Source: Ostreococcus lucimarinus (Eukaryota). Taken from it: a DNA stretch of 64,000 nucleotides. The stretch lies in assembly GCA_000092065.1 (NCBI GenBank), contig CP000596.1; one strand, given 5' to 3'. Below are positions 1,254 through 32,810 of the stretch, piece after piece. The notes under the pieces were generated by a model, which worked only from the letters and a program-made list of their open reading frames with translations, was not told the DNA's origin and made no database searches. The first letter of the stretch is position 1. The number at the start of each line of letters is the position of its first letter. The translations under genes were made by a program, and so were the position numbers.

Positions 1254-4200
1254 TCAGATGACGGAGCTGTAGCCGTCGACTTGGCGTGACGTCGTCGCGA
1301 CGAGCGACGTACGTTCGGACATTTCGGCGTCGGCTGGACGCGCGCGCGCGCGGAACGCGAACGCGAACAGCGCGACGCACAGCGTGAACGCGAAGGGAGT
1401 GTAAAAAATTGCGACCTTTTGACTGCCGTCGATGTCATCTTGAGGGCTCGATGATGCGAGAGATGATTTTTGTCGTGGAGAAGATCCCGACGACCCTAGT
1501 TGTGGCGTTTCGGCGGTGCTCGCGCCGACGCGCACAGGTGCGACGAATTCAAACTCAGCCGCTGGGTTGCCTGCGACGTCGGTCACTTCCGTAACAGTCA
1601 CTTTGTGATAGCCTTGTGAAAAGTATGGAAACTTCATCAACCAGTGACCACCAGCGCCATCGTTAACGCATTGAAGGACGTACTGTCTCAAGTCTTCGTT
1701 GGAAACGGCTTCGAAGGGACCCGTCGACGAGTTGCCTCGCTTGGCCGTGATCACTTGCTTCGTGCAATCAATGTCTTCCATGAAATCGACGCGTTGCGTT
1801 ACCTGTGAGCTCACATATTTGAAATCACCGACGAGCGGGTCCTTCGTATCTATCTTCACCATGAGATTTTGATCGCTCACAAATTCGTGCACTGACGGCT
1901 TTGCGAGGTGAGATCCGCCCACGCACATTGTTTTCAATCGGATATCATATTTCCCATCTTTATATCCACTCAGAAGTTTGTTGTAAGGGTCGTTTAGATC
2001 CCAGTCAAAGATGCAACCGTCTCCACCCCGCGACTCCGGGCAAAGTAAATTGAAATTCTTATTCGTGCCGGCACCGCGCTCGGCGTCTTTCGCTGTGATC
2101 CATTCGCCTCCTGATACCGAACGATATTGCACGTAGACGTAGGCGAGATTCCCATTCGTCACCAACGCTTCGGACGTGGATGCAGTTTCCTTGGGCCAGA
2201 GAGAATATCTATTCGGATTTACGACCGAGATGCTCAAAACGCTCGAATCAGACGCTGCGCTCTTCTCAAAGTAACTTGCTTCCTTGCTGAGCGTAGACGA
2301 GTGAAAAGCAACTTGAGGGCAATCTTTACTCCACGACATGGCACCGAGTGTAACACTGCTCGAGATGATCGGGCGATACATGTATTCTTCAATCATCGAC
2401 TCACACAAGCTCACCAAGGAAATCCCCAGGTACGAGCTTTCATACACTCCGTCGCTTGGCTCCACGCTCAGAAGCACGCGACTCTCGCGCACAACGCTTT
2501 GCGAATCCATACGCTCTCCAGCCAATCTTCGTAGAGGTAGGACTTCACCGAATGACCACATTTGAATACCATTGATCGAGAACTTCATTCCCTGTAGGAG
2601 TGTTCCTTGTGCTGTAGTGGTTTGCGTGAGACGAGCGATTGCGTTTGCCAACAATCTCCCTGCTCTGACGCTCATTGACTGTTCGTATGACGCTACGATG
2701 TCTTCAATCCGCGCCTTCAGGTCTTGAATGTCATCAGACTCTGACGCAAAGCATTCGTGGCTATCCGCCATGGCGTATGCTGCATTCTTTACGAACGTTG
2801 CGTTGTCCTCGTTCAACTGTGCCGCGTTATGAGCAGCCGCGATGATTTTTCCAACGCAGTCGGCGACTCCATCTACCAAACGAAGGCCCATGTTGGCCAC
2901 TTCCTTGTAGGGCGACTCATTGCTGATGAGAAGTTGGATCAAAGCGTGCTCTCCTGGGTTCAGATTCGTGTTATGCGTCGACTCCTTACCTATGGTAACG
3001 CCAGCTTCTCGGAACATCGTCCATTTTTCTCCCGGACATTGACTTCTGCCGCCCATCGTGATGAACACTGGAGATCCGAAACGTTTGTCGGAACTGACCT
3101 GGAGCACAAACTTATCCCCAAAATCTGGGTCACCTAATGAGTACATCGTGCTCATGTGTTCATACTTTGCCCAGGCAAAGGCACGACTTTTTGAAACTGA
3201 CTTGCTCATATCCGTGGTAGCACCTACATGCCCCTTGACGATGGCGATTGAACCCGCGAAGGAGTATCCGTTTTCAGCTGAGCCGTCCAGGCTGAGCGTC
3301 CATGCGTAATCTTGACCGTCGACGTTTTCGTTGGAAGAAAATATGTACTCTGTCGAAGCACCACCGCCGCTAAACGATAGTAAAATTGCTTCATCAGCGG
3401 GTCCATTCGAATCTGTGGTGGAGTAGCCGCGGGGACCCATACGCCCTGTAAACGACGCATCGACTCGTTTCGTATCGTTCATGTAAATGGATGCATCCTC
3501 TCCGAGCGTAAGATCGCTAAGATCGCTCGATTGAAGTAGTTGTGACGACACGTCTAGAGCCTGCGTTTTGCATTTTTCTGTGATGCAGGATGAAACCGTG
3601 TTGTTCAGATCTTCACGAGTGGGGCTATTCATCCCCATTGTCGTGACGAGCTCATCCGCTTCTTGAAATTGCTCGAGGAACTTCGGCTTCATCCTTTCAC
3701 TCTTTCGTGACCAGAAAACCTTGCCGACGTCTGGGGTGGCGTCGTTATCGTCGTCGTCACCGCGGAACCCAAGGTTTCCACTCAACAAGTCTGAAAATAA
3801 AGTCCCGGGATTGCTAACGTAGCCACTGATGAGCTGGGACAATCGAGATTCATCCGTCTCATCCGAGAGAATGAAGTCGTTAAGTGTGTCTATAGTACCA
3901 TCCGCGTCGCCCAAGTCCCCTGGAACGCCATGTATGTATGGACTAACTCTGTCGATTCTCTTCCAAGCAAGCTTCAACTCGTCTATTGGGGTAGAAATCG
4001 GACCGCTCGCGTCACTTATGAACGATGTTTCCATTTTCTCGGCTTCCATACCGAACGCGGATTGTTCATCCATAAAAGGAACCATGATGCGCTCCATTGC
4101 GCCGTAGTTTTTACCGTACAACACGGGAGCGCCTTCCGCAGTCGGCTCCATAGGAACCTTGTACACTGTTGGCGAAGCCCACAAAAGTGTGCGTTGCCAC

Positions 4201-7200
4201 ACGTTAATTTTGTCAGCGATGTACTGTGGCCAATTAGGCGCTTCCATTTTAGAATCATCCCCGACGATGAGGCCGCTTTCCACGACGGAAAGCAAATACC
4301 GCAAGTTTGGAATCACTTTCGCTTCAATCGAGTGTACCGTGAATATGTAGGACGTGGGTTTCCTCGGCATCCATGTGATCGCCGTCGATATCCGCAAGCA
4401 CGGTTTATCGTCTTCCCTTAGCGCAAGATCGAGCGTATCGGCTAGCCTGTAGACAAGTTCAACGCCGCCACCTAGAATCGCATCGCCCTGTCGTCCCGGG
4501 ATGGCGACGTCGGTACTTGTCCGTATGACACGATTTATCGTAGCCGTGAGATCCCAACCGACGGCGGAACTCTGAGCGACCGAAAATTCTGGTCCAGACT
4601 CCTCATGGTATGCGTCAAAATCTATCTTAAAGAGAGGCATTCCGAGCTGGAATAAAACCTCCATGCCATACCCAGCGCCGAACCCAGGTTTCGCCTCCAC
4701 TTCGAGTTCTACGCCGCCACCGCCTTCGTGTGAACTCGACACAGACGCCGCTTGTTCGTCTGAAAGCTCCACGGACATGGTCACTTCCGTGCCCATAAGA
4801 AGTTCGGCGTAAGAGTTGCCACCGGGCGGATCATGTACCGTCATGTACACCAAACCTTCGAGTGGAACAGTTGCCCAATACACGTCATCGCTTTCTTCGC
4901 CGTAGATCCCTTCGCCTCGCGGTTTCGAGCCAAGAGAGATGAGCTCTCGTTTCAACGGAACTGTCACTGTCATCGAACCATCAAATCTACCCACAGTCAG
5001 TTCGACAGATCTGCGGTAATTTCCTGAGAGCTTAGGATCTCCCGCGACAATGAGTCGATCCGTCGTCTTCTCGCCCTCATCCGTGGGGAATAAAAGTTTG
5101 TCGCTCTCCGGATCGATCTCAACGTCAAAGTCGCACAATGGTCCTCCATTGCGATCGGTATGACATGGATTTTCGGCTATATCGGTGACGCTTTGTCTGA
5201 ACATGGCCACCGTCATCCCGCCGCTCTCGGCGCTAGGCAGTGTCAAGCATTCATCGAGTGAACCATTCTCCACATGCAGTTCAAGTACTTTGGCGCTCAC
5301 AAGTTTCGGCCCCAAAGCGTAGAGCCCTTCTCCACCGAAATCATCAAAAAATGGCGATATCCCAACAAAGTGGTTGTGTCTAATGCCACCAGCTTTCACG
5401 CCATCAACGTCCCAGCAGTAATCGCCATCGTCGGTGATTACAGAAAGATCTACGAACTCTGCGCACAAATAACCGTGGTACTTGTATCTCGCCGAATACC
5501 AAGTGTGCTCAGTGCGTAATGGTACAAGCCTTTCGATCGTTGTTGGATGCTGGCGGAAGTATGGAATGATGCCGTCTACTCCGACATGACACAACGCGTT
5601 CGGATATTTCTCCTCGCGCATCGCCGTGAAATTCGCTGTGGATGGGGCCTCTTCGATCACTACCGAGTAATCCATCGCGGCGAGTGGCCACCGTCTTCCA
5701 TTCGGAACTTCTTGATATGTTGGTATAACGTCTGAGTTTTCCTTGTCGCGGTCAGGTAGAGTCCAGCCGGATACTTGAGCCGAAGTGAAGATGGCTGGTG
5801 GGTGACAGCCATTGATGGGGGTAATTTTGAAAGTCGCCCCTGTGTAAAGCTTTTCACACTCACCTTGATAGACACCCAAATCGACGTTTGCCGTCGTCGT
5901 GTCTGAGAAGAAAATGTACTTTTTCGATGATACGGCGTGGAGAGTAACTGTGGTCGGTTTACCGTCGCAGCTCCAAATTCTCGTAGCTTCCACGATGGTG
6001 GTTCCCGAATAGCAGATTTCGTGACCGGGATATTCCGCGGTTATCGTGTAGGTTTTCCCGTTTGTGACTGCGAATTCGAACCAGCCAGTCTCGTCTGTAG
6101 TGAATTGTCGCGGCGCACCAGCCTCGCTTTCATCTTTGACATAAATGCTTGCCTCAAAAAGTCCACACTCGGACAACTCGGTCCATTCTATTGGGAACAT
6201 GACGGCACCCAAAATGACCACTGTCGTATCGTCCTGCATTTTCTGCTCTACCTGATGATTATGGGTCAGCTCCAGGTTGATGACATCAATATCAGCCGTA
6301 TCCGAAAATACGGTATCACTTTCATATAGGTCACCATCGTCATCCGAAGTTCCAGCTTGCTTGACGACGTCATTGTTGTTGAATACATGCACGATTTCTG
6401 GCAGCTGCTGCGTGCTCCACAGCGCGACATCCAATCCAGGACGAGTGACGCGCGCGAACAGCGTCTGCGGATCATCTTGAACCACGTCGTGCAGTAGTGC
6501 GGCATCTAAGTCAACGAAAATCTTATTCGAGCCGGGAGATGTAGCAAGTAACGGTGTTGCATACACGGAGGTCTCATCGCCGACGACAATGGCATCGAAC
6601 TCGGCGTCTTCGAGAGGGCGACAGTGATCGATTTTTGACACAACATCACCCCCACTCTCTGCGCTGAGCTCATCATACCACTCGTTCCATCCCTCGGAAG
6701 AGTACGGAACGTGGGCTGATGTCGATCTTCGAACGATGAAATTTTCGCACGCTTTGCCAAACACTTGGCTACGCGCATCCTGGTGAGACTCGTCGGCGAT
6801 CGCAGCGCTAACACTCTGCACGGTGAACAAATCGAAGTCGTATGTAATTTTCCGCGGAGGGAATACGAGCACTGGCTCGACAAACAATGTCCGTTGAGCC
6901 AGACGATGCGCCACACTGAGGAATTCTTGTGCGTTCAGAAGTCCATCACCGTCCATATCCAACGACGAATTCCAAAGTTCTTCTGAAATTATCGCGTACC
7001 CATTGCTTGGAAAACTCGCACCTTTCTCGATGATGGCGGTCAACTCTGACTTATCGATGCCCCCGCTTCCATCTGTGTCTGTCTCGTCAAAATCGTGCAT
7101 CGGTGGTGGAGGCGATGGCGGTGGTGGCGATGGCGGCGGCGGCGATGGCGGCGGCGGCGATGGCGGCGGCGGCGACGGCGGCGGTGGCGACGGTGGCGGC

Positions 7201-10200
7201 GGCGGCGATGGCGGCGGCGGCGACGGCGGCGGCGGTGACGGTGGCGGCGACGGCGGCGGCGGCGATGGCGGCGGTGGTGATGCGATGCGCTCGACCCAGT
7301 GAACGTTTGTGAGAGAACCGGCCTTGACAGAGATATCCGCATGCAGCGGGTACTCGGGAGTCTGTTGACTGGTGTAAAAGCGAATTTCATTCTTGAAGTA
7401 CTCCACGGCTCCGGCGTCGTTGATGACGATTTGCAGCGAGTCGGACGAAGAGTAAGTCCCAGCCATCGTATACTCACGCTTGCCTTTCTCGTACACCTTG
7501 ATCTGTTTGGTATGCGTACAAAAAATCGCAAAATCAAGACTTTGATAATTCGTCGAATCCGTCGTCGACTGAGAGTTCAAACCGATCATCCTGTTGTTGT
7601 ATCCTCCGGCACAGACTGCGGAGATGCCACGCACAGAGTCAGAACCATTTCGAATAGCGCGCTGACTCACCGCACCGGCGTCCCAAGCGCCAGTCACTGC
7701 AGCCGTGCGCGTGACTTGGCCGCTTTCTGTGGATTCGACGCCGACTTGCGATACCCACGCGACATGATCGTCCGCCACCGCCTTTCCTGGCGGCGGCGGC
7801 GGCGGTGACGGTGGCGGCGGCGACGGCGGCGGCGGTGACGGTGGCGGCGGCGACGGCGGCGGCGGCGGCGACGGCGGTGGTGACGCGATGCGCTCGACCC
7901 AGTGAACGTTTGTGAGAGAACCGGCCTTGACAGAGATATCCGCATGCAGCGGGTACTCGGGAGTCTGTTGACTGGTGTAAAAGCGAATTTTATTCTTGAA
8001 GTACTCCACGGCTCCGGCGTCGTTGATGACGATTTGCAGCGAGTCGGACGAAGAGTAAGTCCCAGCCATCGTATACTTACGCTTGCCTTTCTCGTACACC
8101 TTGATCCGTTTGGTATACGTACAAAAAATCGCAAAATCAAGACTTTGATAATTCGTCGAATCCGTCGTCGACTGAGAGTTCAAACCGATCATCCTGTTGT
8201 TGTATCCTCCGGCACAGACTGCGGAGATGCCACGCACAGAGTCAGAACCATTTCGAATAGCGCGCTGACTCACCGCACCGGCGTCCCAAGCGCCAGTCAC
8301 TGCAGCCGTGCGCGTGACTTGGCCACTTTCTGTGGATTCGACGCCGACTTGCGATACCCACGCGACGCTACCAAGTATCTCGCCCGCCACCGCCTTTCCT
8401 GGCGGCGGCGGCGGCGGCGACGGCGACGGCGGCGGCGGTGACGGTGGCGGCGACGGCGGCGGCGGCGATGGCGGTGGTGGTGACGCCATGCGCTCGACCC
8501 ATTTAACATCGCTGAAGGAACCACGCATAATAAAAGCAACATCCGCGTGCAGCGGGTACTCGGGAGTCTGTTGACTGGTGTAAAAGCGAATTTCATTCTT
8601 GAAGTACTCCACGGCTCCGGCGTCGTTGATGACGACTTGCAGTGTATCGCTGTCCGTATACGCCACTGCAGCACCCTTAATTTTTTTACCACCTTCGTAC
8701 ACTTCAACTGCATCGGAGTGAAAATTGCATCTGATGCTGAAGTCCATTCGACTGGACACGGTCTCTGCCGCGGACTGCCGATTCAAGCCGATGAACTTGA
8801 GGCCGGACTCAGACCCACAACGAGCCGAGATTCCGCGCACTGAGTCCGTCAGGCCGTGGATCGACCGACGACTCACCGCACCGGCTGCGGAAAAATAATT
8901 CCACCAATTTGGAGATCGCCGCCAAACTTTTCGATTCGACGCTTTGGCTCTGCGAAGCGTCACCCAGACCACGTTGCCAACCGCCGCTTTTTCAGGCGGC
9001 GGCGGCGGCGGTGGCGACGGCGGCGGTGGCGACGGCGGCGGTGGTATGTACTGCGCAATGTTCCCCAGGAGGCGGCGCCCCCAGCGCTGCCTACCCAAGA
9101 GTGACGTCGTGGTTTCAGGAGATGACGAATCATCTTCCTTTAAGACCAATAAGACTTTACTGGGTACGTTCAGCGGGTCTGTCACGTCCGACGTTTGCAA
9201 GATGGGCTGCGTCGTCTTTTCAAAAACTTCCACTTTGTACGCCCCGATGTCAACGTGAGTTTTGATTGGCGTCATACCCGTGGAGTCTGTGATATGAACA
9301 ACAAACGATCCTTCCGAATCAGTGACCGCGCTGAAAGGGCATCGCGTCTCACCACCCAATACTCTTATTTCAGTCAAATTGACGTCTCGAACCGCCACGA
9401 CTGATACAAACTGCCCGTGCATCGCCTGCACAGTGTCGCCCCCGCCCCCCCCGCATGTAAACGTCAAACAGTCTGCGAATTCATCACTGACATCAGACGG
9501 ATCGTGGTTACATGCATATCCATAATTAGTCGTGTCTTCGGGATCGATTTCATGCACGTGCACTTTCATCGGTAAACTAAGCGTCGGACTCGCCTGTTGC
9601 CGAAATTCAAATCCCGTTACTTCAACTTTGCTCGATTCCGCACCAAACGAAATCTCGGGGAAAGTTATGTATTGATCTTGAGATGATATGAGGGTGGCGT
9701 TGAAACGTCTCCACGATTCCTCATGTATGGTGAATGATTCCGTACTGGCGTCAGTGGCGGATGTTCCGCGCAAGTCGATTGACACCGCGCGTTCACCACC
9801 CAAAGACTTCGCCCAAAACGACACCACGACAGAATCTCCAGTCAGGGCGCGCAAAGACTCGCCAGGAACGTGCACCGTGACTGAAACGCCTGCGTCCACC
9901 GATTTTACAACGTCCTCGAAACCAGGTGGAGGCGCAGTTGGGCTCGCGGTTAAAGGACTGATGGCGCTTGTCTGAACAAGCTCGAGGCGTTCGGTGAGAG
10001 TATTAAGAGTGAAATGAGCTCCGGTGAAGTAGAACGTACTTTCCGACCAAGCTGATACAGTAAATCCGACGAAAGCGGCGTCCTCTAACGTGTGCTTAAG
10101 CCTTATTTTCCTCCATTTATTCGGTTCAGCTGTAATGACGAGCGCGTCACCAACGGTCTGACGGCCTGCTGCTGTAGTTTGTTGTTCATACCCTAAAATC

Positions 10201-13162
10201 TGGAAAGTCATAATCGCCTCCTTCCCGACGGCGCGTACCCAGCATTCCAACAACACTGTATCACCAGCTTCGGCGTCTAGTCGATCAGTATTTTTCGCCC
10301 AGAGTTTCTCGTCTGCTCGCACGAGTCGGATGACATCATTCTCGTAACGAGGTGGATCAACGATCACGTCTGGATCATCGCCTGTATCGCCAGAATACCC
10401 CAGTCGGTCGGTGAGAGAACCCTCGGCAAGTTGGCGTGCCTTGATCGATTGCGGCTGTAGACATACTTGAACACTGCCTATTGACATCCAAAGACCAAGA
10501 TCGACGCGCGCGTAGCCACCCGTCGATACGACGACAGATTCACCGGTAGGTATGTGATTCCCATCGGTGAGCGTGTACGCTTGTTCATTCAAAGGGTTTG
10601 AGTATGCGTGCTTGAAAAGTGCGACATTGCTGGAAGATGATTCGACGTCGTCGCTCGGCCGTAAAGTTATCGTCGAATTCTCATTTTCATCCGCGTCTGG
10701 AGGCCTGGACCCTCGGTAATTTGCGACCTCCCCATCTATTACGATCGGGTCGTGAAAATTAGCGCATATTCGGACGTCGGGTACTGGAACAGCGGAATCA
10801 CCGGCGTACACGTAACCACCTACCTCTCCGTGCCAGGGCGTGATGAATTTGAAAGGGACAGAGTTTATACTTCCACCGGATGATGTTTTCGTCACCACCT
10901 TATACTTCCAAATCTGTCCTGGGATTGCCGCCGCCTCTCTGTCGGCGAAAAGCAACGGCGCGTACGATCGATGACAGTACGTGAGGCCACTGTCAATCAT
11001 CACCACTGACTCATAAGGTGCATCCGTCAGAGAATCCTGCATGCTTTGACGAAGAATCTCGAACCCAACGTCATTCCAGGCGGTATCACGGAAGCTGAAA
11101 GTGACTCCTACTGGATCCAGTTTTCCGTTGACGTCAATAGTAGAACCATCGTAGTACAATCCACCTCCACATTCAAACTTTGAGTAAGTTTCCTCGCGAG
11201 CGTCCGAAATGACGCCACTTAAACACACAATTCTTCGAGCTTTTGGTGCGGATGATTGACGAAGCACGCAGCGCTTGTAATGTCCACATCTTACGGTATC
11301 AATGAACATCACTTCGCGTATCACTCCGGTATACACTCGAACGTCGTCGAATTCAAAATCCACCGCGCCAAGCAGTGTAACGTCCGTCATTGACTCGAGC
11401 GCGCTCAGCGGCCAAGTTTCATCGCGCGTGTAAGTCGTATCATCGATTACTGTGGCCTTTGCGTCACTCGTTGGATCTACGTACAATGTCATGAAATTCA
11501 CCGAGTTTACGGCGAACGCGATGAGGTGCCACTCCCCGTCGCACGCAAAATCAAGTTTCACATCCTTTGAGGATGTGAAAGCGCTCGGAGGATCCACAGA
11601 CTCCTTGACCTGATGAGATGCCCGCAGTTCGACCATGCCGTCGCTCGTACGTATCTTGAGGTATACGTGGAGTCTGTGATCGTGAAGTCCCAACTGTCCT
11701 TGAAACTGAGCGACCGTCATGAGTGATTCGTCGTTGGAGGATTTGGGTTGCGAGCAACGACTTGGATCGATGCGCACCCATGTGCTCATCGCGATGTCGT
11801 GCCCAAGCGTATCTTCTTTATCAAGAGAGTATGAATAATCGTTCGTCCCAGGATCATCCACTGCTTGAAGGCAGCGAAATCCGTTGCCCCCCGAACATCC
11901 CGATATTGTGCGAGCGGATTTCGGCTGCAATCTCATCGGGACGGAAGACTGTCCGTCGACGATTGGCGCGACCGAATCAAGCGATCCGTCGTGTAAAGGG
12001 TCTTCATCAAACGTAAATGCTGCCACGAGAGAAGCGTGTTCGTCGAGAAAGTCACTCGTTGCTGGGCGAATGTCCGTGAAGGAGATGGGAAGTTGAAGCG
12101 TCGTGCCGCCGACTTCATACTCTTCAAAGCGCACATCGACGACGTCGTCGACTGTACCGTCGGCAACGTTGATCTGATTGAAGAGTATACCATCCACGTA
12201 TGCGCAGACGTAATCGCCGTTCGTTGGCTTAGGACTGTACGACCATGCAGTGGTGAGCCCGTTGAGGCCACTCACACAGCGATTCTCCGTTTGCCAGTCG
12301 AGAGTCGGATAGGTGATGCTATCGATACTGAAACTGTTCGACGGAGCTCCGCTGCACTTGACGGGTCGAACGGGGATTTCCATCACGTCGACAATAGACA
12401 CTGCCAGATCTGTGTCGTGCGCGGCGCGAAATTGGTCATTCCAAACGTTGAGAATGTACCTCGAAACGCTTTGTTCCACCAACATGGCCTGAAGTTCATT
12501 CAGTCGCAGCAGTCCGTCGCTGGGATCGACGTCGTGCCTACGAAAGATGCTTTCCTTTGTCTTGTAAATTTCGCCATCATCGCACAGCACGTTGTTGAAT
12601 TGATCGTTACTCAGCAATATGTACCGGACCAGTTCTTCAAGCCCCGAATTCTGATTCGCGCTCGCTTGGCCGGCGGCGTTGAATCCGAGAGGCAGGTGCA
12701 AATCGCAACCCTTGATAACTTCGAAAGAGTGTTGACCAACGGTTTCCGAACCTGGAACGATGCCATCGACCGTAACAAAGTGACAGTTATAAGTTATGGT
12801 GTGAGATCCAACCGAGTGCGTCCCATCCAACTCTGTGAGCGCGAGCGCCTTCGGGAAAAAATCATTCCATTTGCGACACGGTAAGTTATCCGCGTAATCC
12901 GACTCGGAACACGACTGATCGTCTCGTTTCACGCGAACATCGCATCGGAGACCAAGCGCGTGATTGCTCACGCTCTCTTCATTCACATTCAGTAAACAAT
13001 CGCTCGCTTCAGCGCACGCGGGATGATGCACCGCGACTTGGAAATCGTACGAGTACGCCGCAACCCTCTCCGTGGTGGAACCAAATCTCACTTCAATCGC
13101 AGCACCGGCACCAGGCGGCGGCGGTGGACTCGGCGGCGGCGGGCTCGGCGGCGGGCTCGGCG

Positions 13163-13202
<40 letters not shown>

Positions 13203-13569
13203 CGGACTCGGCGGCGGCGGCGGGCTCGGCGGCGGCGAACAATTCGCTATACCCTCGCAATTCTCCGTTCGTGTTTGTCCCTCATACGCTCCACAACTTC
13301 GTCCACCGTTTCGCGGCTTGACGGTGATCGTGAACGTCTGCGAGTACGTCGCCGGTCCGCAAAAAGCCGTGCAACTCCCTTGCCAAAAGCCTACACAATC
13401 CGTTTTCGGCGGCGACGGCGACGACCCCCCGTGGACCCCTCGCAGCGACGACAGCGCGCTCGCGACGACCAACCCGCGCATCATCGTTCGCGTCGCGTCC
13501 CATCGACGTCCGGCGCCATCGCGCGTCGTCGACCGCGACGGCGCGCGTCGTTCGCGAAGCTGACGCGGC

Positions 13570-13571
<2 letters not shown>
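1254..13571 (-). CDS. Giant (about 4,080-4,105 aa) single-exon cell-surface protein with a C-terminal TM anchor. N to C: signal peptide, TSP1-like Cys motif, extensin-like (S)PPPP spacers, LamG/concanavalin-like region, three tandem ~190-aa repeats, EF-hand/dockerin-like Ca-binding pair, ~2,500-aa C-terminal ectodomain. Function unknown.
   Basis: The ORF is uninterrupted for 12,318 nt on the minus strand. The probable true start is the ATG ATG at 13479-13484, giving MMRGLVVASALSSLRGVHG, which looks like a signal peptide. The TSP1-like motif is CVGFWQGSCTAFCGP...RNGGRSCGAYEG...NCEG. SPPPPSPPPP runs are encoded by GGCGGCGGCGGCGAY tracts. The LamG-like signature is FACDGEWHLIAFAVNSVNFMTLYVDPT. 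The Ca-binding loops are DTDGSGGIDKSE and DMDGDGLLNAQE. The C-terminal TM helix is VAIFYTPFAFTLCVALFAFAF, followed by a short tail. Confidence 0.8.
7040..9060 (-). repeat. In-frame tandem array of a roughly 600-bp unit (two near-identical 603-bp copies plus one or two diverged copies) inside the giant gene. Each unit encodes a ~160-aa domain plus a PPPS spacer.
   Basis: The string cgctcgacccagtgaacgtttgtgagagaaccggccttgacagagatatccgcatgcagcgggtactcgggagtctg occurs at 7291 and again at 7894, a period of 603 bp (201 codons). A diverged copy begins at 8494. The duplicated spurious ORFs in the track (MILRFFVRIPN..., MNVCERTGLD...) reflect the same repeat. Confidence 0.85.
13113..13240 (-). repeat. 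Coding G-rich 12-15-nt periodic microsatellite (GGCGGCGGCGGGCTC-like) encoding the (S)PPPP extensin-like spacer. Similar tracts lie at about 7100-7290, 7790-7890, 8395-8490 and 8990-9045.
   Basis: The periodicity is visible directly in the sequence. Read on the minus strand it gives SPPPPSPPPPPSPPPP. Confidence 0.7.
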
Positions 13572-18358: not shown

Positions 18359-19315
18359 TTAATCGAACGGGTCGATGCGAGGATCGTGCTCGGTCGCGAG
18401 CGCCATCCCGGTGCACAAGCACGACGTGCACATAACCTTCGCCGTGCCGCTGCACGTCGGACAAATACATCTCGTGTTCGACGTCGGATCGATCAATCGC
18501 CCCGGGCGGTTGCTCGTCGAGCACTCCGCGCACTGTAAGTACCCACTCCCCTTGCAATACATGCAAATCTTCTTGCGCTGCTCTTTGACGTTTTGAATTT
18601 CGATGACGAAGAAGGCGGAAATCGCCCCCACGGCGCCGCCCGTGAACGAAGCCACGATCGGATCAACCTGCGCGAGCTGCGCGGGCAAGTGCACGCTATC
18701 TATGAACTCCGCGTACGACGTCCCGCCGAGCCCGAGTTTCACTTCCGCCATGGGTGCGATCAACCCTCCGAAGAGGAGCAAAAATCCCACCGCCGCGCCC
18801 CAATAAATCCGATAATCCTTCACGCTATCCTCCGTCAACACCGGGAATCCCGGGATCACGGACTCGAACTCCCGCGTCTCCTTCACCTCATCGTCGTCCA
18901 ACCCGATCGTCTTCACGCGCTGCTGCACCCGCAACCGTCGCAACTCCTCCATCAACAAAAACAATCGCTGTCGGCGACTCTCGATGTTCTGCGCGATCTC
19001 CCCCGCCTGCATGTCCGCGAAATCCACCACACTGTTCCGCCCCTCGATGATGCAATAATTCTCCGGCAACGCTTGCGAATCAAAATCTCGCGCCTCGCCC
19101 TCCGCGTCGTCCTCCTCCGCGTCGTCGTTCGCCGCCGTCGTCGCCGCGCCCTCGCCTTCGCCCTCGCCGATCGCTCTGCGCGTCCCTCCCGCGCGCGTTC
19201 GCGCCCATTCCGCGCGCGCCGTCCGCGACGCTTTCGCGCGCATCCGCACTCGCGCGTTCACCGCCCCCGTTCGCGCGCGCATCGCGCATCGCGTCGTCGG
19301 CGTCGTCGCGCGCAT
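18359..19315 (-). CDS. OR: ORANGE (OR) protein: plastid DnaJ-like Cys-rich zinc-finger membrane protein, the phytoene-synthase holdase
   Basis: Near-identity to plant OR over the conserved core: CIIEGR..VDFA.M...I..NI.SRR...FLLMEE.RRLR.QQR; GLGGTSYAEFI; QVDPIVASFTGGAVGAISA; CMYCKGSGYLQC; KVMCTSCLCTGMALATEHDPRIDPFD. There are two TM helices and CxxCxGxG motifs. Confidence 0.9.
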   Translation of the reverse strand: MRATTPTTRCAMRARTGAVNARVRMRAKASRTARAEWARTRAGGTRRAIGEGEGEGAATTAANDDAEEDDAEGEARDFDSQALPENYCIIEGRNSVVDFADMQAGEIAQNIESRRQRLFLLMEELRRLRVQQRVKTIGLDDDEVKETREFESVIPGFPVLTEDSVKDYRIYWGAAVGFLLLFGGLIAPMAEVKLGLGGTSYAEFIDSVHLPAQLAQVDPIVASFTGGAVGAISAFFVIEIQNVKEQRKKICMYCKGSGYLQCAECSTSNRPGRLIDPTSNTRCICPTCSGTAKVMCTSCLCTGMALATEHDPRIDPFD

Positions 19316-19517: not shown

Positions 19518-19533
19518 AACCCTAGCTAGGGTT
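19518..19533. promoter_or_regulatory. Perfect 16-bp palindrome AACCCTAGCTAGGGTT (telo-box-like AACCCTA core on both strands) in the OR/QS bidirectional promoter
   Basis: Read directly from the sequence; it is self-complementary. It contains TAGGGTTTAG, which is about 1.4 units of the plant telomere repeat TTTAGGG. It lies within the 384-bp spacer between divergent start codons 19315 and 19700. Confidence 0.4.
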
Positions 19534-19699
19534 TAGACGTATCCATCGCCGACGCCGTCGCCGCGACACGGCGACGCGCGCCGACCGCCCGACGCGCGCG
19601 CGCGACGCCGACGCGCGCGCGACGCTCGCGCCGACCGCCCGCGCGCGCCGACGCGCGCCGACGCGCCGACGCGCCGACGCGACGACGCGAAACGTCGCG

Positions 19700-21742
19700 A
19701 TGACGGCGGCTCGGACGTCGTCGACGTCGGCGCGCGCGACGACGCGCGGGACGGCGACGGCGAGGCGCGGAAGAGCGCGACGCGGCGCGGAAGAGCGACG
19801 CGCGATCGCGCGGCGCGCGATGACGCGCGAGACGACGACGGGCGGGAGCGTGCGGGAGCGCGCGTCGGCGGCGAGCGCGAGGGTTCGGGACGCGGGCGCG
19901 AGCGTCGCGGACCGCGTGAAATGGTTGATCGCGCTCGCGCGAACGCGGGGCGGCGACGACGCGTGGCTGGACGAGGATGGGAGAAATGCGACGACGCGCG
20001 TGATGGGGTGCGCGTCGGCGAGCTGGATCGAGGCGGTGGTGGATGAGGCGAGCGGACGGGTGCGAGCGCGATGCGCGAGCGAGAGCGACGCGACTCGAGG
20101 ATACGGAACGTTGTTGTGCGAGGCGTTGAGCGGTGGGACGGTGGATGAGTGCTTGGAGCTGGGAGATGATTTCGTGGACGCGATGGAGATCGGGATCGGG
20201 TCCAAGGTGGAGAAGTCGCGAACGAATGGGTTTAAGAATATGTTAGAGACGGCGAAGAAGCAGTTGCGAACGCTTCGAGCCGACGCCGGAGGGGATCCGT
20301 TTCCGAGCTTGATCGTCACCGCGGACGAAGTGCGATCGCGTGGATCGTTTGCGGCGTCGCAGGCGTCGTATTTGGAGCCCGATGCGGGCAAAGTGAAGGC
20401 TTTGGTCGAGGCGTTGTCGACGAAGAAGATCGGCATCGTGGCGCACTTTTACATGGATCCCGAGGTGCAAGGCATTTTGATGGCCGCAAAGGCGTCGTAT
20501 CCGCACATCGCCATCAGCGATTCGCTCGTCATGGCGGATTTAGCGGTGAAGATGGTCGAGGACGGGTGCGAGACGATCGGGGTGTTGGGGGTGGATTTCA
20601 TGTCTGAGAACGTTCGCGCCATCATCGACGAAGCCGGGCACGCGGACGCCAAGGTGTATCGCATGGCGGCGGAAGACATCGGATGCTCGCTCGCGGAAGC
20701 CGCACAGAGCGAAAGTTACGATAGCTATCTCGAAGATGCGAGTAAGACGAAGAACTCGGTGCACGTGATTTACATCAACACTGGTTTGGACACCAAGGCG
20801 GCGGCGAATGCGAAAATTCCCACCATCACGTGCACGTCTTCCAACGTCGTGGCGACGGTTTTGCAAGCCGCGGCGCAGATTCCCGACGTGCACGTATTTT
20901 ACGGCCCCGATACGTACATGGGCGGGAACTTGGCCGAGCTCTTGCGTCGGATGACGACGTGGGACGACGAGGACATCAAGGCGATGCATCCGGCGCACGA
21001 CAGAGAAACCGTCAAGGCGCTCTTGCCTCGTTTGAAGTACTTCAACGACGGCACGTGCATGGTGCACGACATGTTCGGCGAAGACGTTTGCAACACCGTG
21101 CGCGCGTTTTACGGCGATGCGTACCAAACCGCGCACTTTGAAGTTCCCGGAGAAATGTTCAAGCTCGCCATGGAGGCGAAGGATCGCGGGTTGGGCGTCG
21201 TCGGCTCGACGCAAAACATCTTGGATTACACGTGCGCGCGCGTGGACGAAGCCATCGAGCGCGCGCTTCCCGAAGGCGAACGTTTGCGATTCGTGCTCGG
21301 CACCGAGACTGGGATGGTGACGTCCATCGTGCGCGCGGTGCAGGCGCGTCTTCGCGCGGCGCGCGACGCGGGCGTTCGCGGCGTCGAAGCCGAAATCGTC
21401 TTCCCAGTTTCCGCCGACGCCATCACCGCCACGGGCGACGCGGAGATCCCTGTCGTGCCCGGCGTCGTCGCGGGCGAAGGGTGCTCGCTCGACGGCGGGT
21501 GCGCGTCTTGTCCGTACATGAAGATGAACTCGTACGACGCGTTGATGAAGATGTGCGACAAAATCGGCTCCGCCGCCGGCGAAGCCGTGCTCGCCGCGCA
21601 GGAGCCGCGCAAATACGAAAGCGCGGACGGCGCGGGTCCATCCATCGCATCGCAAGGATGCGTTCCGATCTTACACATGCGGCATTTCCAAAAGAACAAG
21701 ACGTTTAGCGACGCGTTGGTCGAGGACATCACCACTCGTTAA
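19700..21742 (+). CDS. QS: Quinolinate synthase (NadA) with an N-terminal SufE-like domain (the plant plastid QS/SufE3 architecture) and a transit peptide
   Basis: The SufE-like region reads RVMGCASASWIEAVVDE...LLCEALSGGTVDECLEL. The NadA core includes IGIVAHFYMDPEVQG, ITCTSSNVV and GTETGMVTSIV, plus a C-terminal GCSLDGGCASCPYMKMN. Confidence 0.9.
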   Translation: MTAARTSSTSARATTRGTATARRGRARRGAEERRAIARRAMTRETTTGGSVRERASAASARVRDAGASVADRVKWLIALARTRGGDDAWLDEDGRNATTRVMGCASASWIEAVVDEASGRVRARCASESDATRGYGTLLCEALSGGTVDECLELGDDFVDAMEIGIGSKVEKSRTNGFKNMLETAKKQLRTLRADAGGDPFPSLIVTADEVRSRGSFAASQASYLEPDAGKVKALVEALSTKKIGIVAHFYMDPEVQGILMAAKASYPHIAISDSLVMADLAVKMVEDGCETIGVLGVDFMSENVRAIIDEAGHADAKVYRMAAEDIGCSLAEAAQSESYDSYLEDASKTKNSVHVIYINTGLDTKAAANAKIPTITCTSSNVVATVLQAAAQIPDVHVFYGPDTYMGGNLAELLRRMTTWDDEDIKAMHPAHDRETVKALLPRLKYFNDGTCMVHDMFGEDVCNTVRAFYGDAYQTAHFEVPGEMFKLAMEAKDRGLGVVGSTQNILDYTCARVDEAIERALPEGERLRFVLGTETGMVTSIVRAVQARLRAARDAGVRGVEAEIVFPVSADAITATGDAEIPVVPGVVAGEGCSLDGGCASCPYMKMNSYDALMKMCDKIGSAAGEAVLAAQEPRKYESADGAGPSIASQGCVPILHMRHFQKNKTFSDALVEDITTR

Positions 21743-31736: not shown

Positions 31737-32010
31737 CGCGCGCGCGTTTTACCCCATCATCGCGCGTTCGCGTTCGCCGACCCCGCGACGCGCGTAAATT
31801 CCGAGATGGGCGTCGCGAGGCGCGGAATGCGCGATCACCGATCGACGGCGTCGATGACCGATCGTGGGAATCGCGGTTACGGGCGCGACGCGCGATCGCG
31901 GAATTCACGCGCGCGCCGGCGCGAACCCCGCGGGGCGACCGGCGGCACATCGTCGCGCGTCGCGGAGCACTCAGGACGCTCTTAAGAAGGCAACGCGCGA
32001 GGATAAAATC

Positions 32011-32239
32011 ATGGCTCCGAAGCAAGGATCGAAGAAGGCGGCCGAGGGCATCAACGCGCGACTGCAGATCGTCATGCGATCGGGGCGGTACACGCTCGGG
32101 TACAAGCAGTGCCTGAAGACGCTGCGCAAGGGACAGTCGAAGCTCGTGCTGATCTCGAACAACTGCCCGGCGCTGCGCAAGAGCGAGATCGAGTACTACG
32201 CGATGTTGGCGAAGACCGGGGTGCATCACTACGCCGGAA
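32011..32239 (+). CDS. RPL30: 60S ribosomal protein L30e, exon 1
   Basis: [76 protein letters not shown] matches RPL30e. The GTGCGT donor lies at 32240. Confidence 0.85.
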
Positions 32240-32297
32240 GTGCGTGCGCGAGGCGACGCGATTCGACGCGATGCGACGCGCGAGGACGGGGGGGTGG

Positions 32298-32307
32298 AAA
32301 ACCCTAA
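32298..32307. promoter_or_regulatory. Telo-box AAACCCTAAA inside the RPL30e intron
   Basis: The intron sequence ggaaaaccctaaagacgg holds 1.4 units of the CCCTAAA (TTTAGGG) telomere repeat. In plants this matches the telo-box cis-element typical of ribosomal-protein gene 5' regions and introns. Confidence 0.4.
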
Positions 32308-32362
32308 AGACGGCGACGACGCGCGAGAGACTGACGAAGACGACGAACGCGTCGCGTGAACA

Positions 32363-32469
32363 GATAACGTCGATCTCGGCACGGCGTGCGGTCGATACTA
32401 CCGCGTGTCTTGCATGTCGATCACCGATCCGGGCGACTCCGACATCGTCAAGGCGGTGCCGGAGGAGTA
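32363..32469 (+). CDS. RPL30: 60S ribosomal protein L30e, exon 2 (the 123-nt intron spans 32240-32362)
   Basis: After the splice (phase 1) the exon encodes [35 protein letters not shown], which matches the RPL30e C-terminus ([29 protein letters not shown]). The intron carries the branch motif GAGACTGACGA and a CAG acceptor. Confidence 0.85.
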
Positions 32470-32727
32470 AACGCGCGAAGCCGTTCGGCGACGCGCGGGC
32501 GATTCTTCGGACGATGATTGGTTCGGGCGATCGCGACGCGATCGACGTCGCGAGTTTGCTTGTAATAGATCATCGACTCGCTTCGAGAGTTATTTTAAAT
32601 CGGTCAAACGTCGCGGGTGGTGATGAAACTCTGTATCTGGTCTTCTTTCCACTGAGGAGACGTCGTCTCGGCGACGTCATGAAGAGAATGTCCGCATACC
32701 TTCTGAACCCAACTCTCTTTTGCGTCG

Positions 32728-32770
32728 CTCGTTCCTCGTTCGCTCGTTCGCTCGTTCGCTCGTTCGCTCG
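32728..32770. repeat. (TCGTTCGC)n octanucleotide microsatellite: four perfect copies plus degenerate flanks, in the RPL30e 3' region
   Basis: The sequence reads tcgttcgctcgttcgctcgttcgctcgttcgc at 32736-32767. Confidence 0.6.
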
Positions 32771-32810
32771 CGATAGAAATCTAGATTACAAAATGATGAT
32801 CAACGTTCGA

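Follow-up and report, generated by a model that had tools for sequence, protein, structure and literature searches.

Introduction

The telo-box is a short DNA element with the core AAACCCTAA that is found in Arabidopsis and rice at the genes encoding ribosomal proteins and eEF1A and at other translation genes. It equals the plants' own telomere repeat, of the TTTAGGG type, is tied to cytosolic ribosomal-protein genes, lies around or just downstream of the transcription start, first introns included, occurs in either orientation, and is usually present in one or two copies. At the ribosomal-protein and eEF1A genes of Arabidopsis it acts together with other elements. It has become a textbook signature of the ribosomal-protein genes of plants, and its reach beyond the land plants is poorly documented. 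Here, we analyse a motif with the identical core, the 10-mer AAACCCTAAA, in a stretch of 64,000 nucleotides belonging to Ostreococcus lucimarinus, a green alga (contig CP000596.1; hereafter the window), where it lies in the intron of the ribosomal-protein gene RPL30e, and we follow it through the RPL30 and RPS23 genes of other algae. The algal motif has in common with the land-plant element all the traits of sequence, gene class, placement, orientation, and copy number listed above. It differs from it in its hosts, which are chlorophyte prasinophytes (Mamiellophyceae and Cymbomonas), in the lack of enrichment of site II/TCP elements, in an apparently tolerated G variant (AAGCCCTAG), and in the position of the window copy at about +290 from the ATG.

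Three other systems are close enough to be informative. The reuse of the motif of a telomere-binding protein as the signature of a regulon is known from yeast, where Rap1 and Tbf1 sites mark the promoters of ribosomal-protein and small nucleolar RNA (snoRNA) genes. The logic is the same here, whereas the motif sequences differ, the yeast sites are upstream of the genes and not intronic, and binding and function were established experimentally in yeast but are predicted in the algae. The telobox-type Polycomb response elements of Arabidopsis, served by the TRB proteins and Polycomb repressive complex 2 (TRB-PRC2), have the same DNA motif as the algal element and would share with it a telomere-repeat-binding reader, but they silence developmental genes, whereas the targets described here are housekeeping ribosomal-protein genes. 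Finally, the yeast RPL30 gene belongs to the same gene family and also has an intron-containing transcript, which is regulated by the L30 protein itself through a pre-mRNA site close to the 5' splice site. That site is a strand-specific RNA kink-turn, unlike the algal motif, which is seen in either orientation and is not confined to the transcript.

As for algae, Wang et al. (2011), who dealt with Ectocarpus and Chlamydomonas, found no enrichment of the element in Ectocarpus and called the telo-box-linked coordination of ribosomal-protein genes land-plant-specific. In the open literature searched, we found telo-boxes nowhere linked to the ribosomal-protein genes of algae, a prior mention in the Ostreococcus footprinting study of Piganeau et al. 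(2009) being possible. The comparisons presented below make it probable that the O. lucimarinus motif is a functional cis-element of the telo-box type, acting as DNA, an interstitial copy of the telomere repeat that modulates cytosolic ribosomal-protein genes.

Results

A copy of the telomere repeat in the sole intron of RPL30e

An exact match search found AAACCCTAAA once in the window, on the plus strand at 32299-32308, which corresponds to positions 60-69 of the RPL30e intron. The initial annotation had reported a telo-box at 32298-32307. The motif is real and its coordinates were one base off: the range given reads AAAACCCTAA and contains the canonical 9-mer AAACCCTAA at 32299-32307. Its placement of the motif inside the RPL30e intron, and its description of that intron as the only one of the gene, both agree with the gene model. 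The motif starts 288 nt (about 290) past the RPL30e ATG, in the first and sole intron, which is the right class of location for a telo-box. It is part of a longer conserved block, GGAAAACCCTAAAGACGG (32296-32313, plus strand), which is kept as GGAAAACCCTAAAAGACG in the two further Ostreococcus lineages described in the next section.

The 10-mer amounts to 1.4 units of the O. lucimarinus telomere repeat, (CCCTAAA)n, whose G-strand sequence TTTAGGG was inferred from a study of POT1 binding sites (PMC2794166). It appeared in 0 of 100 dinucleotide-preserving shuffles of the window, its expectation from base composition is about 0.035 copies, and its 8-mer has a chance of about 2e-3 of falling on one or the other strand of a 124-nt intron.

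The gene model is well supported. Exon 1 spans 32011-32239 on the plus strand, with the ATG at 32011, and is followed by a phase 1 intron of 124 nt at 32240-32363 (GTGCGT...ACAG), placed after codon 76 (HHYAG|N), and by exon 2 at 32364-32470, stop codon included. The spliced product, of 111 amino acids, matches the Pfam family Ribosomal_L7Ae (E=8.6e-24) and is identical to the RPL30 of O. lucimarinus CCE9901 (XP_001421907.1) and to the product of an MMETSP transcript. Moreover, in an intron-less contig from a close relative (L001) the exons are joined exactly at the predicted splice boundaries. A putative branch point, CTGAC, was assigned from the consensus at 32331-32335 (plus strand), 29 nt before the 3' splice site.

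The motif is retained at RPL30 while the introns change

Metagenomes provided genomic contigs of two further Ostreococcus lineages (L012-L021 and L022), in which RPL30 has an intron at the same place as in the window and exon identity is about 78-92%. Their introns are 156 and 165 nt long, vs 124 nt in the window, and show 52-58% identity to the window intron in global alignment. Despite this divergence, GGAAAACCCT(A)AAAGACGG is retained in all three introns, and the telo-box is the sole interior block retained in the two other lineages; the branch region GAGACTGAC and the splice sites are also kept in L012-L022. Among the haplotypes of L012-L021 there is variation immediately upstream of the motif and never within it. 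Judged from these alignments, the motif is clearly under purifying selection.

More distant relatives have the motif at RPL30 in other settings. In Cymbomonas tetramitiformis, a member of another prasinophyte class, RPL30 has an intron whose codon and phase match those of the window intron (GGA A|GT after HHYxG). Its 5' splice site is 24 nt away from CCATAGGGTTTCC, which has the opposite orientation and is the sole AACCCTA in the 11.6 kb locus, and a second Cymbomonas contig agrees. A Micromonas species with 65% GC (L026-L031), whose RPL30 clusters with that of M. commoda, has GGGTTTTAGGGTTTTCC on the antisense strand of a different RPL30 intron, after codon 9, where CCATGGGCCTGGGTTTTAGGGTTTTCC lies about 50 nt from the 5' splice site, and no other AACCCTA is present in 20.6 kb. 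The RPL30 intron of Bathycoccus prasinos (after about codon 28) is without the motif, and an inverted pair, TTTAGGGTTACTATAAAACCCTAAA, stands about 155-170 nt upstream of the ATG, these being the sole matches in 6.6 kb in three assemblies. Finally, in the Ostreococcus-like P0005 clade, short contigs that are probably transcripts show CTAGGGTTTGG 117 nt upstream of the RPL30 ATG. The contigs of this clade and L001-L011 are intron-less and probably transcripts, and are uninformative on the intron content of those species.

The RPL30 intron varies in position by genus: it follows codon 76 in Ostreococcus as well as in Cymbomonas, whereas Micromonas has it after codon 9 and Bathycoccus after about codon 28 (introns compared: window 32240-32363, L173 ~5395, L029 9931-10242, and L023 ~3084-3340). 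The introns that bear the motif have nothing in common beyond it. As read from these loci, the telo-box stays with RPL30, and the putative regulatory site outlives, or moves between, the introns that carry it.

The motif or a variant of it at another ribosomal-protein gene, RPS23

We retrieved RPS23 (uS12) by searching metagenome contigs with a codon-targeted DNA pattern, followed by a protein search and by cluster and contig look-ups. The metagenome scan returned mostly archaeal S12 matches and about 10 usable green-algal loci; zero matches to RPS23 were found in viral contigs. In the Mamiellales, exon 1 of RPS23 consists of ATGGG only and is followed by an intron of 430-560 nt. This first intron contains, in Micromonas and in Ostreococcus sp. 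B, a strict telo-box in minus orientation, which is the only AACCCTA of the locus. The strict motif was found in contigs of the M. commoda type (L142, 15 kb, and L127, 11.4 kb, with a protein identical to XP_002499765), in contigs of the M. pusilla CCMP1545 type (L140, 10.7 kb, and L044), in L106, with two copies, and in Ostreococcus sp. B (L158-L161, 20.4 kb), where TTTTTAGGGTTTG lies about 115 nt before the 3' splice site.

No strict copy is present across the RPS23 locus of O. tauri (L162, 20.9 kb) or of the abundant Ostreococcus sp. A (L152-L157, L088, and L117). When the introns of the three Ostreococcus species are aligned, their sole well-conserved interior block is (C/T)TAGGG(C/T)TT, and in the alignment O. 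tauri and sp. A have CTAGGGCTTCG where sp. B has TTAGGGTTTG. The element thus seems to be kept at RPS23 as the G variant AAGCCCTAG. A separate argument, drawn from rare codons at the start of exon 2 of Ostreococcus RPS23 (GGT TTA GGG GCT), was dropped, TTA making up 9% of the Leu codons in the genes of the window.

Orientation and position point to a site in double-stranded DNA

The motif is on the plus strand in the RPL30 of Ostreococcus, and on the minus strand in the RPL30 of Cymbomonas and Micromonas and in all RPS23 genes, and it never lies more than a few hundred bases from where the gene starts. Across the loci compared, it is independent of position and orientation. Since it occurs on either strand, in different introns or upstream of the gene, and is conserved alone, it has the properties of a site in double-stranded DNA and not those of an RNA signal.

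This bears directly on a role at the RNA level, in which the motif would serve the pre-mRNA as a splicing enhancer or silencer, as an intron-retention switch, or as part of a small RNA encoded in the intron, e.g., a snoRNA. Ribosomal-protein introns elsewhere in eukaryotes do host snoRNAs or autoregulatory sites. The distance of the intronic copies to the 5' splice site, 28-60 nt for Ostreococcus and 24 nt for Cymbomonas, would suit such a role, and the RPL30e intron folds somewhat more stably than its shuffles (z = -2.2). Nevertheless, the flanks of the motif are not conserved, so that there is no conserved helix around it. An RNA signal would also have to be strand-bound and transcribed, but the motif is sense in the RPL30 of Ostreococcus and antisense in the RPL30 of Cymbomonas and Micromonas and in every RPS23 intron, and it is upstream of the gene in Bathycoccus and in the P0005 clade. 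Rfam gave zero family matches at E<=1 in 31800-32700. We rejected an intron-hosted snoRNA or other small RNA on the grounds of the missing Rfam family, the unconserved flanks, and the antisense motif of other lineages, and we regard an RNA-level role in general as very unlikely.

The motif is concentrated at the two ribosomal-protein genes

The specificity of the association was quantified on one locus per lineage (10 loci, 187.8 kb), with a ribosomal-protein zone defined as the region from -300 relative to the ATG to the end of the first intron (6.3 kb in total). Strict AACCCTA was found 10 times in the zones, against 0.07 expected at the outside density, and twice in the 181.5 kb outside, where both matches are the arms of one palindrome in the window (19518-19534). 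The relaxed pattern A[AG]CCCTA[AG] was matched at 10/10 of the Mamiellales RPL30/RPS23 loci, with 3 matches outside the zones. If the sites were placed at random within each locus, multiplying the zone fractions would give 1e-9 for the seven loci that have strict sites and 6e-6 when one locus is kept per gene per genus and the discovery window is excluded. In terms of these sequences, the motif is specifically tied to two cytosolic ribosomal-protein genes across the Mamiellales and to RPL30 in Cymbomonas.

Other genes linked to translation do not share it. Pfam scans of the other long open reading frames revealed no second ribosomal-protein gene among the approximately 30 genes of the window. 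The motif is absent from the neighbouring genes for translation or ribosome assembly, which encode a class Ib tRNA synthetase, an HflX-like GTPase, a GNL3-like GTPase, and MPP6, and from the NVL/Rix7-like ATPase gene of the window. It is also absent from the gene of the mitochondrial ribosomal protein S17 in three Ostreococcus species. This S17 gene, of bacterial type, lies 7-9 kb from RPS23 (L153 2214-2585, L158 2250-2603, and L162 596-967). Its lack of a telo-box differs from the situation in land plants, where mitochondrial ribosomal-protein genes share the element (PMC3212954), and agrees with the published view that telo-boxes common to mitochondrial and cytosolic ribosomal-protein genes are a trait of land plants.

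The initial annotation had seen in the motif a plant-type telo-box that marks ribosomal-protein genes from within an intron. The orthologous introns, the recurrence at RPL30 and RPS23, and the scarcity elsewhere lend support to this view at the level of sequence comparison.

The same data weigh on the idea that the motif is neutral. In many genomes, repair gives rise to short interstitial telomere repeats, and the copy in RPL30e could be a relic of telomerase-mediated repair, a part of a mobile intron, or simply the product of chance; Micromonas is known for repeated introns (introner elements). However, the window contains no telomere arrays and no further copy of the RPL30e intron, for which blastn gives CG-rich low-complexity matches that avoid the motif. 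Furthermore, the motif is retained where the introns have otherwise diverged, is shared by motif-bearing introns that share nothing else, and recurs at two unlinked ribosomal-protein genes while being nearly absent elsewhere. An introner or other mobile intron was rejected, given the lack of a second copy in the 64 kb and the dissimilarity of the motif-bearing introns outside the motif. A neutral origin is already strongly disfavoured by these comparisons, to the point of being hardly credible.

The palindrome outside the ribosomal-protein zones raises a different alternative. It is a perfect palindrome of 16 nt made of two telo-box arms, AACCCTAGCTAGGGTT(T), at 19518-19534, in the divergent intergenic region between an Orange-like gene (18359-19315, minus strand), encoding a plastid protein with a DnaJ-type zinc finger, and a SufE-NadA gene (19700-21742, plus strand). 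It is the sole strict telo-box outside ribosomal-protein genes in 188 kb of Mamiellales sequence. Its place in the divergent promoter of two plastid-protein genes implies that the motif is not strictly an activator of ribosomal-protein genes. The same motif, bound by the same kind of protein, might instead be repressive or architectural, recruiting Polycomb or other chromatin proteins or forming a boundary, and would then damp or time transcription, e.g., at night. Work cited in PMC5405695 describes an enrichment of teloboxes at the Polycomb peaks of Arabidopsis and an association of telomere-binding factors with Polycomb proteins. On the other hand, ribosomal-protein genes are among the most highly expressed, and the tight restriction of the motif to them is more easily reconciled with a factor specific to a regulon than with a general chromatin boundary. 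The plant motif at ribosomal-protein and eEF1A genes is, in addition, a positive element in cycling cells, which also speaks against repression. On this evidence a repressive or architectural role seems unlikely.

Other elements at RPL30 and in the surrounding sequence

Another conserved element, CTTAAGAAGG, is found in the leader of RPL30e at 31981-31990 (plus strand), 20 nt before the ATG, and is unique in the window. In all the Mamiellales lineages seen, i.e., Ostreococcus, the P0005 clade, Bathycoccus, and Micromonas, it precedes the RPL30 ATG by 18-61 nt (L012 ~2957, L023 2933, L029 9876, and the leaders of L004-L011). It is single in the 20 kb Micromonas locus too, and Bathycoccus and the P0005 clade have a 17-mer, GCTTAAGAAGGCGAGTT, in common at this site. 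It is absent from all RPS23 loci, from the RPL30 of Cymbomonas, and from the RPL30 of volvocine algae. Its absence from all RPS23 loci led us to reject it as a general leader motif of ribosomal-protein genes, and it seems to be RPL30-specific. The 5' leader that contains it has no significant predicted RNA structure (z = 0.06). We interpret it as a candidate leader or promoter element specific to RPL30, perhaps autoregulatory and probably outside the telo-box system, which would be a better candidate than the telo-box for an RPL30-specific RNA element.

Several further sequences accompany the telo-box in introns. A recurrent block, CTAGGGTC(T/C) or CAGGGTCTCGG, occurs in the RPS23 introns of Micromonas and Ostreococcus and in the RPL30 intron of Bathycoccus (L142 ~7690, L127, L023 ~3130, L152 ~9610, and L158 ~9770), and may be either a weaker variant of the telo-box (GACCCTAG) or a separate element. 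The RPL30 intron of Micromonas contains two site-II-like TGGGCC sequences (L029 9950-9990 and ~10170), one of which abuts the telo-box (CCATGGGCCTGGGTTTTAGGGTT). This arrangement recalls the pairing of telo-box and site II in plants and was not seen in the other loci. Runs of GA or CT follow the telo-box region in the introns of L012 and L022 (GAGAGAGAGAGAGAG) and are present in Bathycoccus ((CT)n at L023 3110-3260); the window intron has GAGAGA only.

Contig L121, from a GC-rich eukaryote, has a degenerate CCCTAA-like array at ~600-760, about 200-330 nt upstream of the RPS23 start (…CCTAACCCTAGCCCTGATCCTAACC…CCTAACCCTAACGCTAACG…). In L146, a contig of the same species, there are also arrays of the CCCTAA type at a distance of 2.5-3 kb. 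The species may represent a further lineage in which telomere-like sequence is paired with a ribosomal-protein gene.

Two features of the window itself are worth recording. Its first ~12 kb have a GC content of 0.51-0.57, vs 0.60-0.70 elsewhere, and are filled by an open reading frame of 4,105 amino acids on the minus strand (1254-13571). A short tandem array, (GCTCGTTC)n, lies at 32727-32772, where RPL30e and an alpha/beta-hydrolase gene converge, in the intergenic space that separates their 3' ends.

Discussion

Our analysis suggests that a motif associated with the ribosomal-protein genes of land plants also marks such genes in early-branching green algae. The arguments for regarding it as a telo-box are the following. 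First, it has the sequence AAACCCTA(A) and spans one or more units of the telomere repeat of its host. Second, it falls, as judged from the ATG, within the location class of telo-boxes. Third, it is conserved against a diverged background. Fourth, it occurs irrespective of orientation and position.

These observations could be accounted for by a simple mechanism. A sequence-specific protein binding double-stranded DNA would recognise AA(A/G)CCCTA(A/G) in either orientation, and, given the identity of the site with the telomere repeat, a telomere-repeat-binding factor of the Myb type would be the simplest candidate. Once bound, it would modulate how cytosolic ribosomal-protein genes are transcribed, its most probable role being that of a growth-linked activator or co-ordinator. 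The intron of RPL30e would then serve as the housing of a promoter-proximal site just downstream of the transcription start, and over evolution the element would move between the upstream region and introns while staying within a few hundred bases of the start. In this scheme, the binding of a protein, the nature of the factor, whether it activates or represses, and the coverage of most ribosomal-protein genes in this genome are all predictions.

A number of points weigh against a functional telo-box. First, the motif of the window lies about 290 nt after the ATG, farther than is typical of Arabidopsis, where the telo-box is placed preferentially between -60 and +140 around the transcription start (PMC2576244). 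Second, site II (TGGGCY), whose co-occurrence is frequent in plants and not required by the definition of the telo-box, shows no enrichment in this sample, with 0.32/kb in the ribosomal-protein zones vs 0.40/kb outside. Third, the RPS23 genes of O. tauri and sp. A are without the canonical motif, and the equivalence of AAGCCCTAG is assumed from the alignment. Fourth, the motif is absent from the RPS23 of Chloropicon primus (L039) and the RPS25 of Cymbomonas, both outside the Mamiellales, and volvocine RPL30 has no telo-box, of either the TTTAGGG or the TTTTAGGG type, in or near the gene, the latter being the altered telomere repeat of Chlamydomonas. Fifth, our statistics overstate independence because the loci compared share ancestry, and the survey covers O. 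lucimarinus through RPL30e alone and its relatives through two families of ribosomal proteins. Sixth, the TRB proteins, which are the best-documented binders of the motif in plants, have so far been traced to streptophytes only (PMC12616469).

A functional telo-box in these algae, if accepted, invites a broader and more tentative proposal, which we find possible and on balance still doubtful. The link between telomere repeats and ribosomal-protein genes would predate the land plants and operate in chlorophytes that have no TRB proteins, and in prasinophytes the Myb protein that binds telomeric double strands would also be the master regulator of cytosolic ribosomal-protein genes. Such a link may act through movable sites that are promoter-proximal and often intronic, and may be the green-lineage counterpart of Rap1 and Tbf1 in yeast. 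The system may be ancestral to Viridiplantae, with losses in the core chlorophytes, where the telomere repeat changed, or it may have been re-invented repeatedly.

The finding extends a telo-box-type element to Ostreococcus, Micromonas, Bathycoccus, and Cymbomonas, and raises the question of which protein reads the motif in prasinophytes. It also provides a case in which a putative regulatory site persists through changes in, or the replacement of, its host intron. With its 124-nt intron, Ostreococcus would be a compact and transformable system in which to study the telomere-like control of ribosome production.

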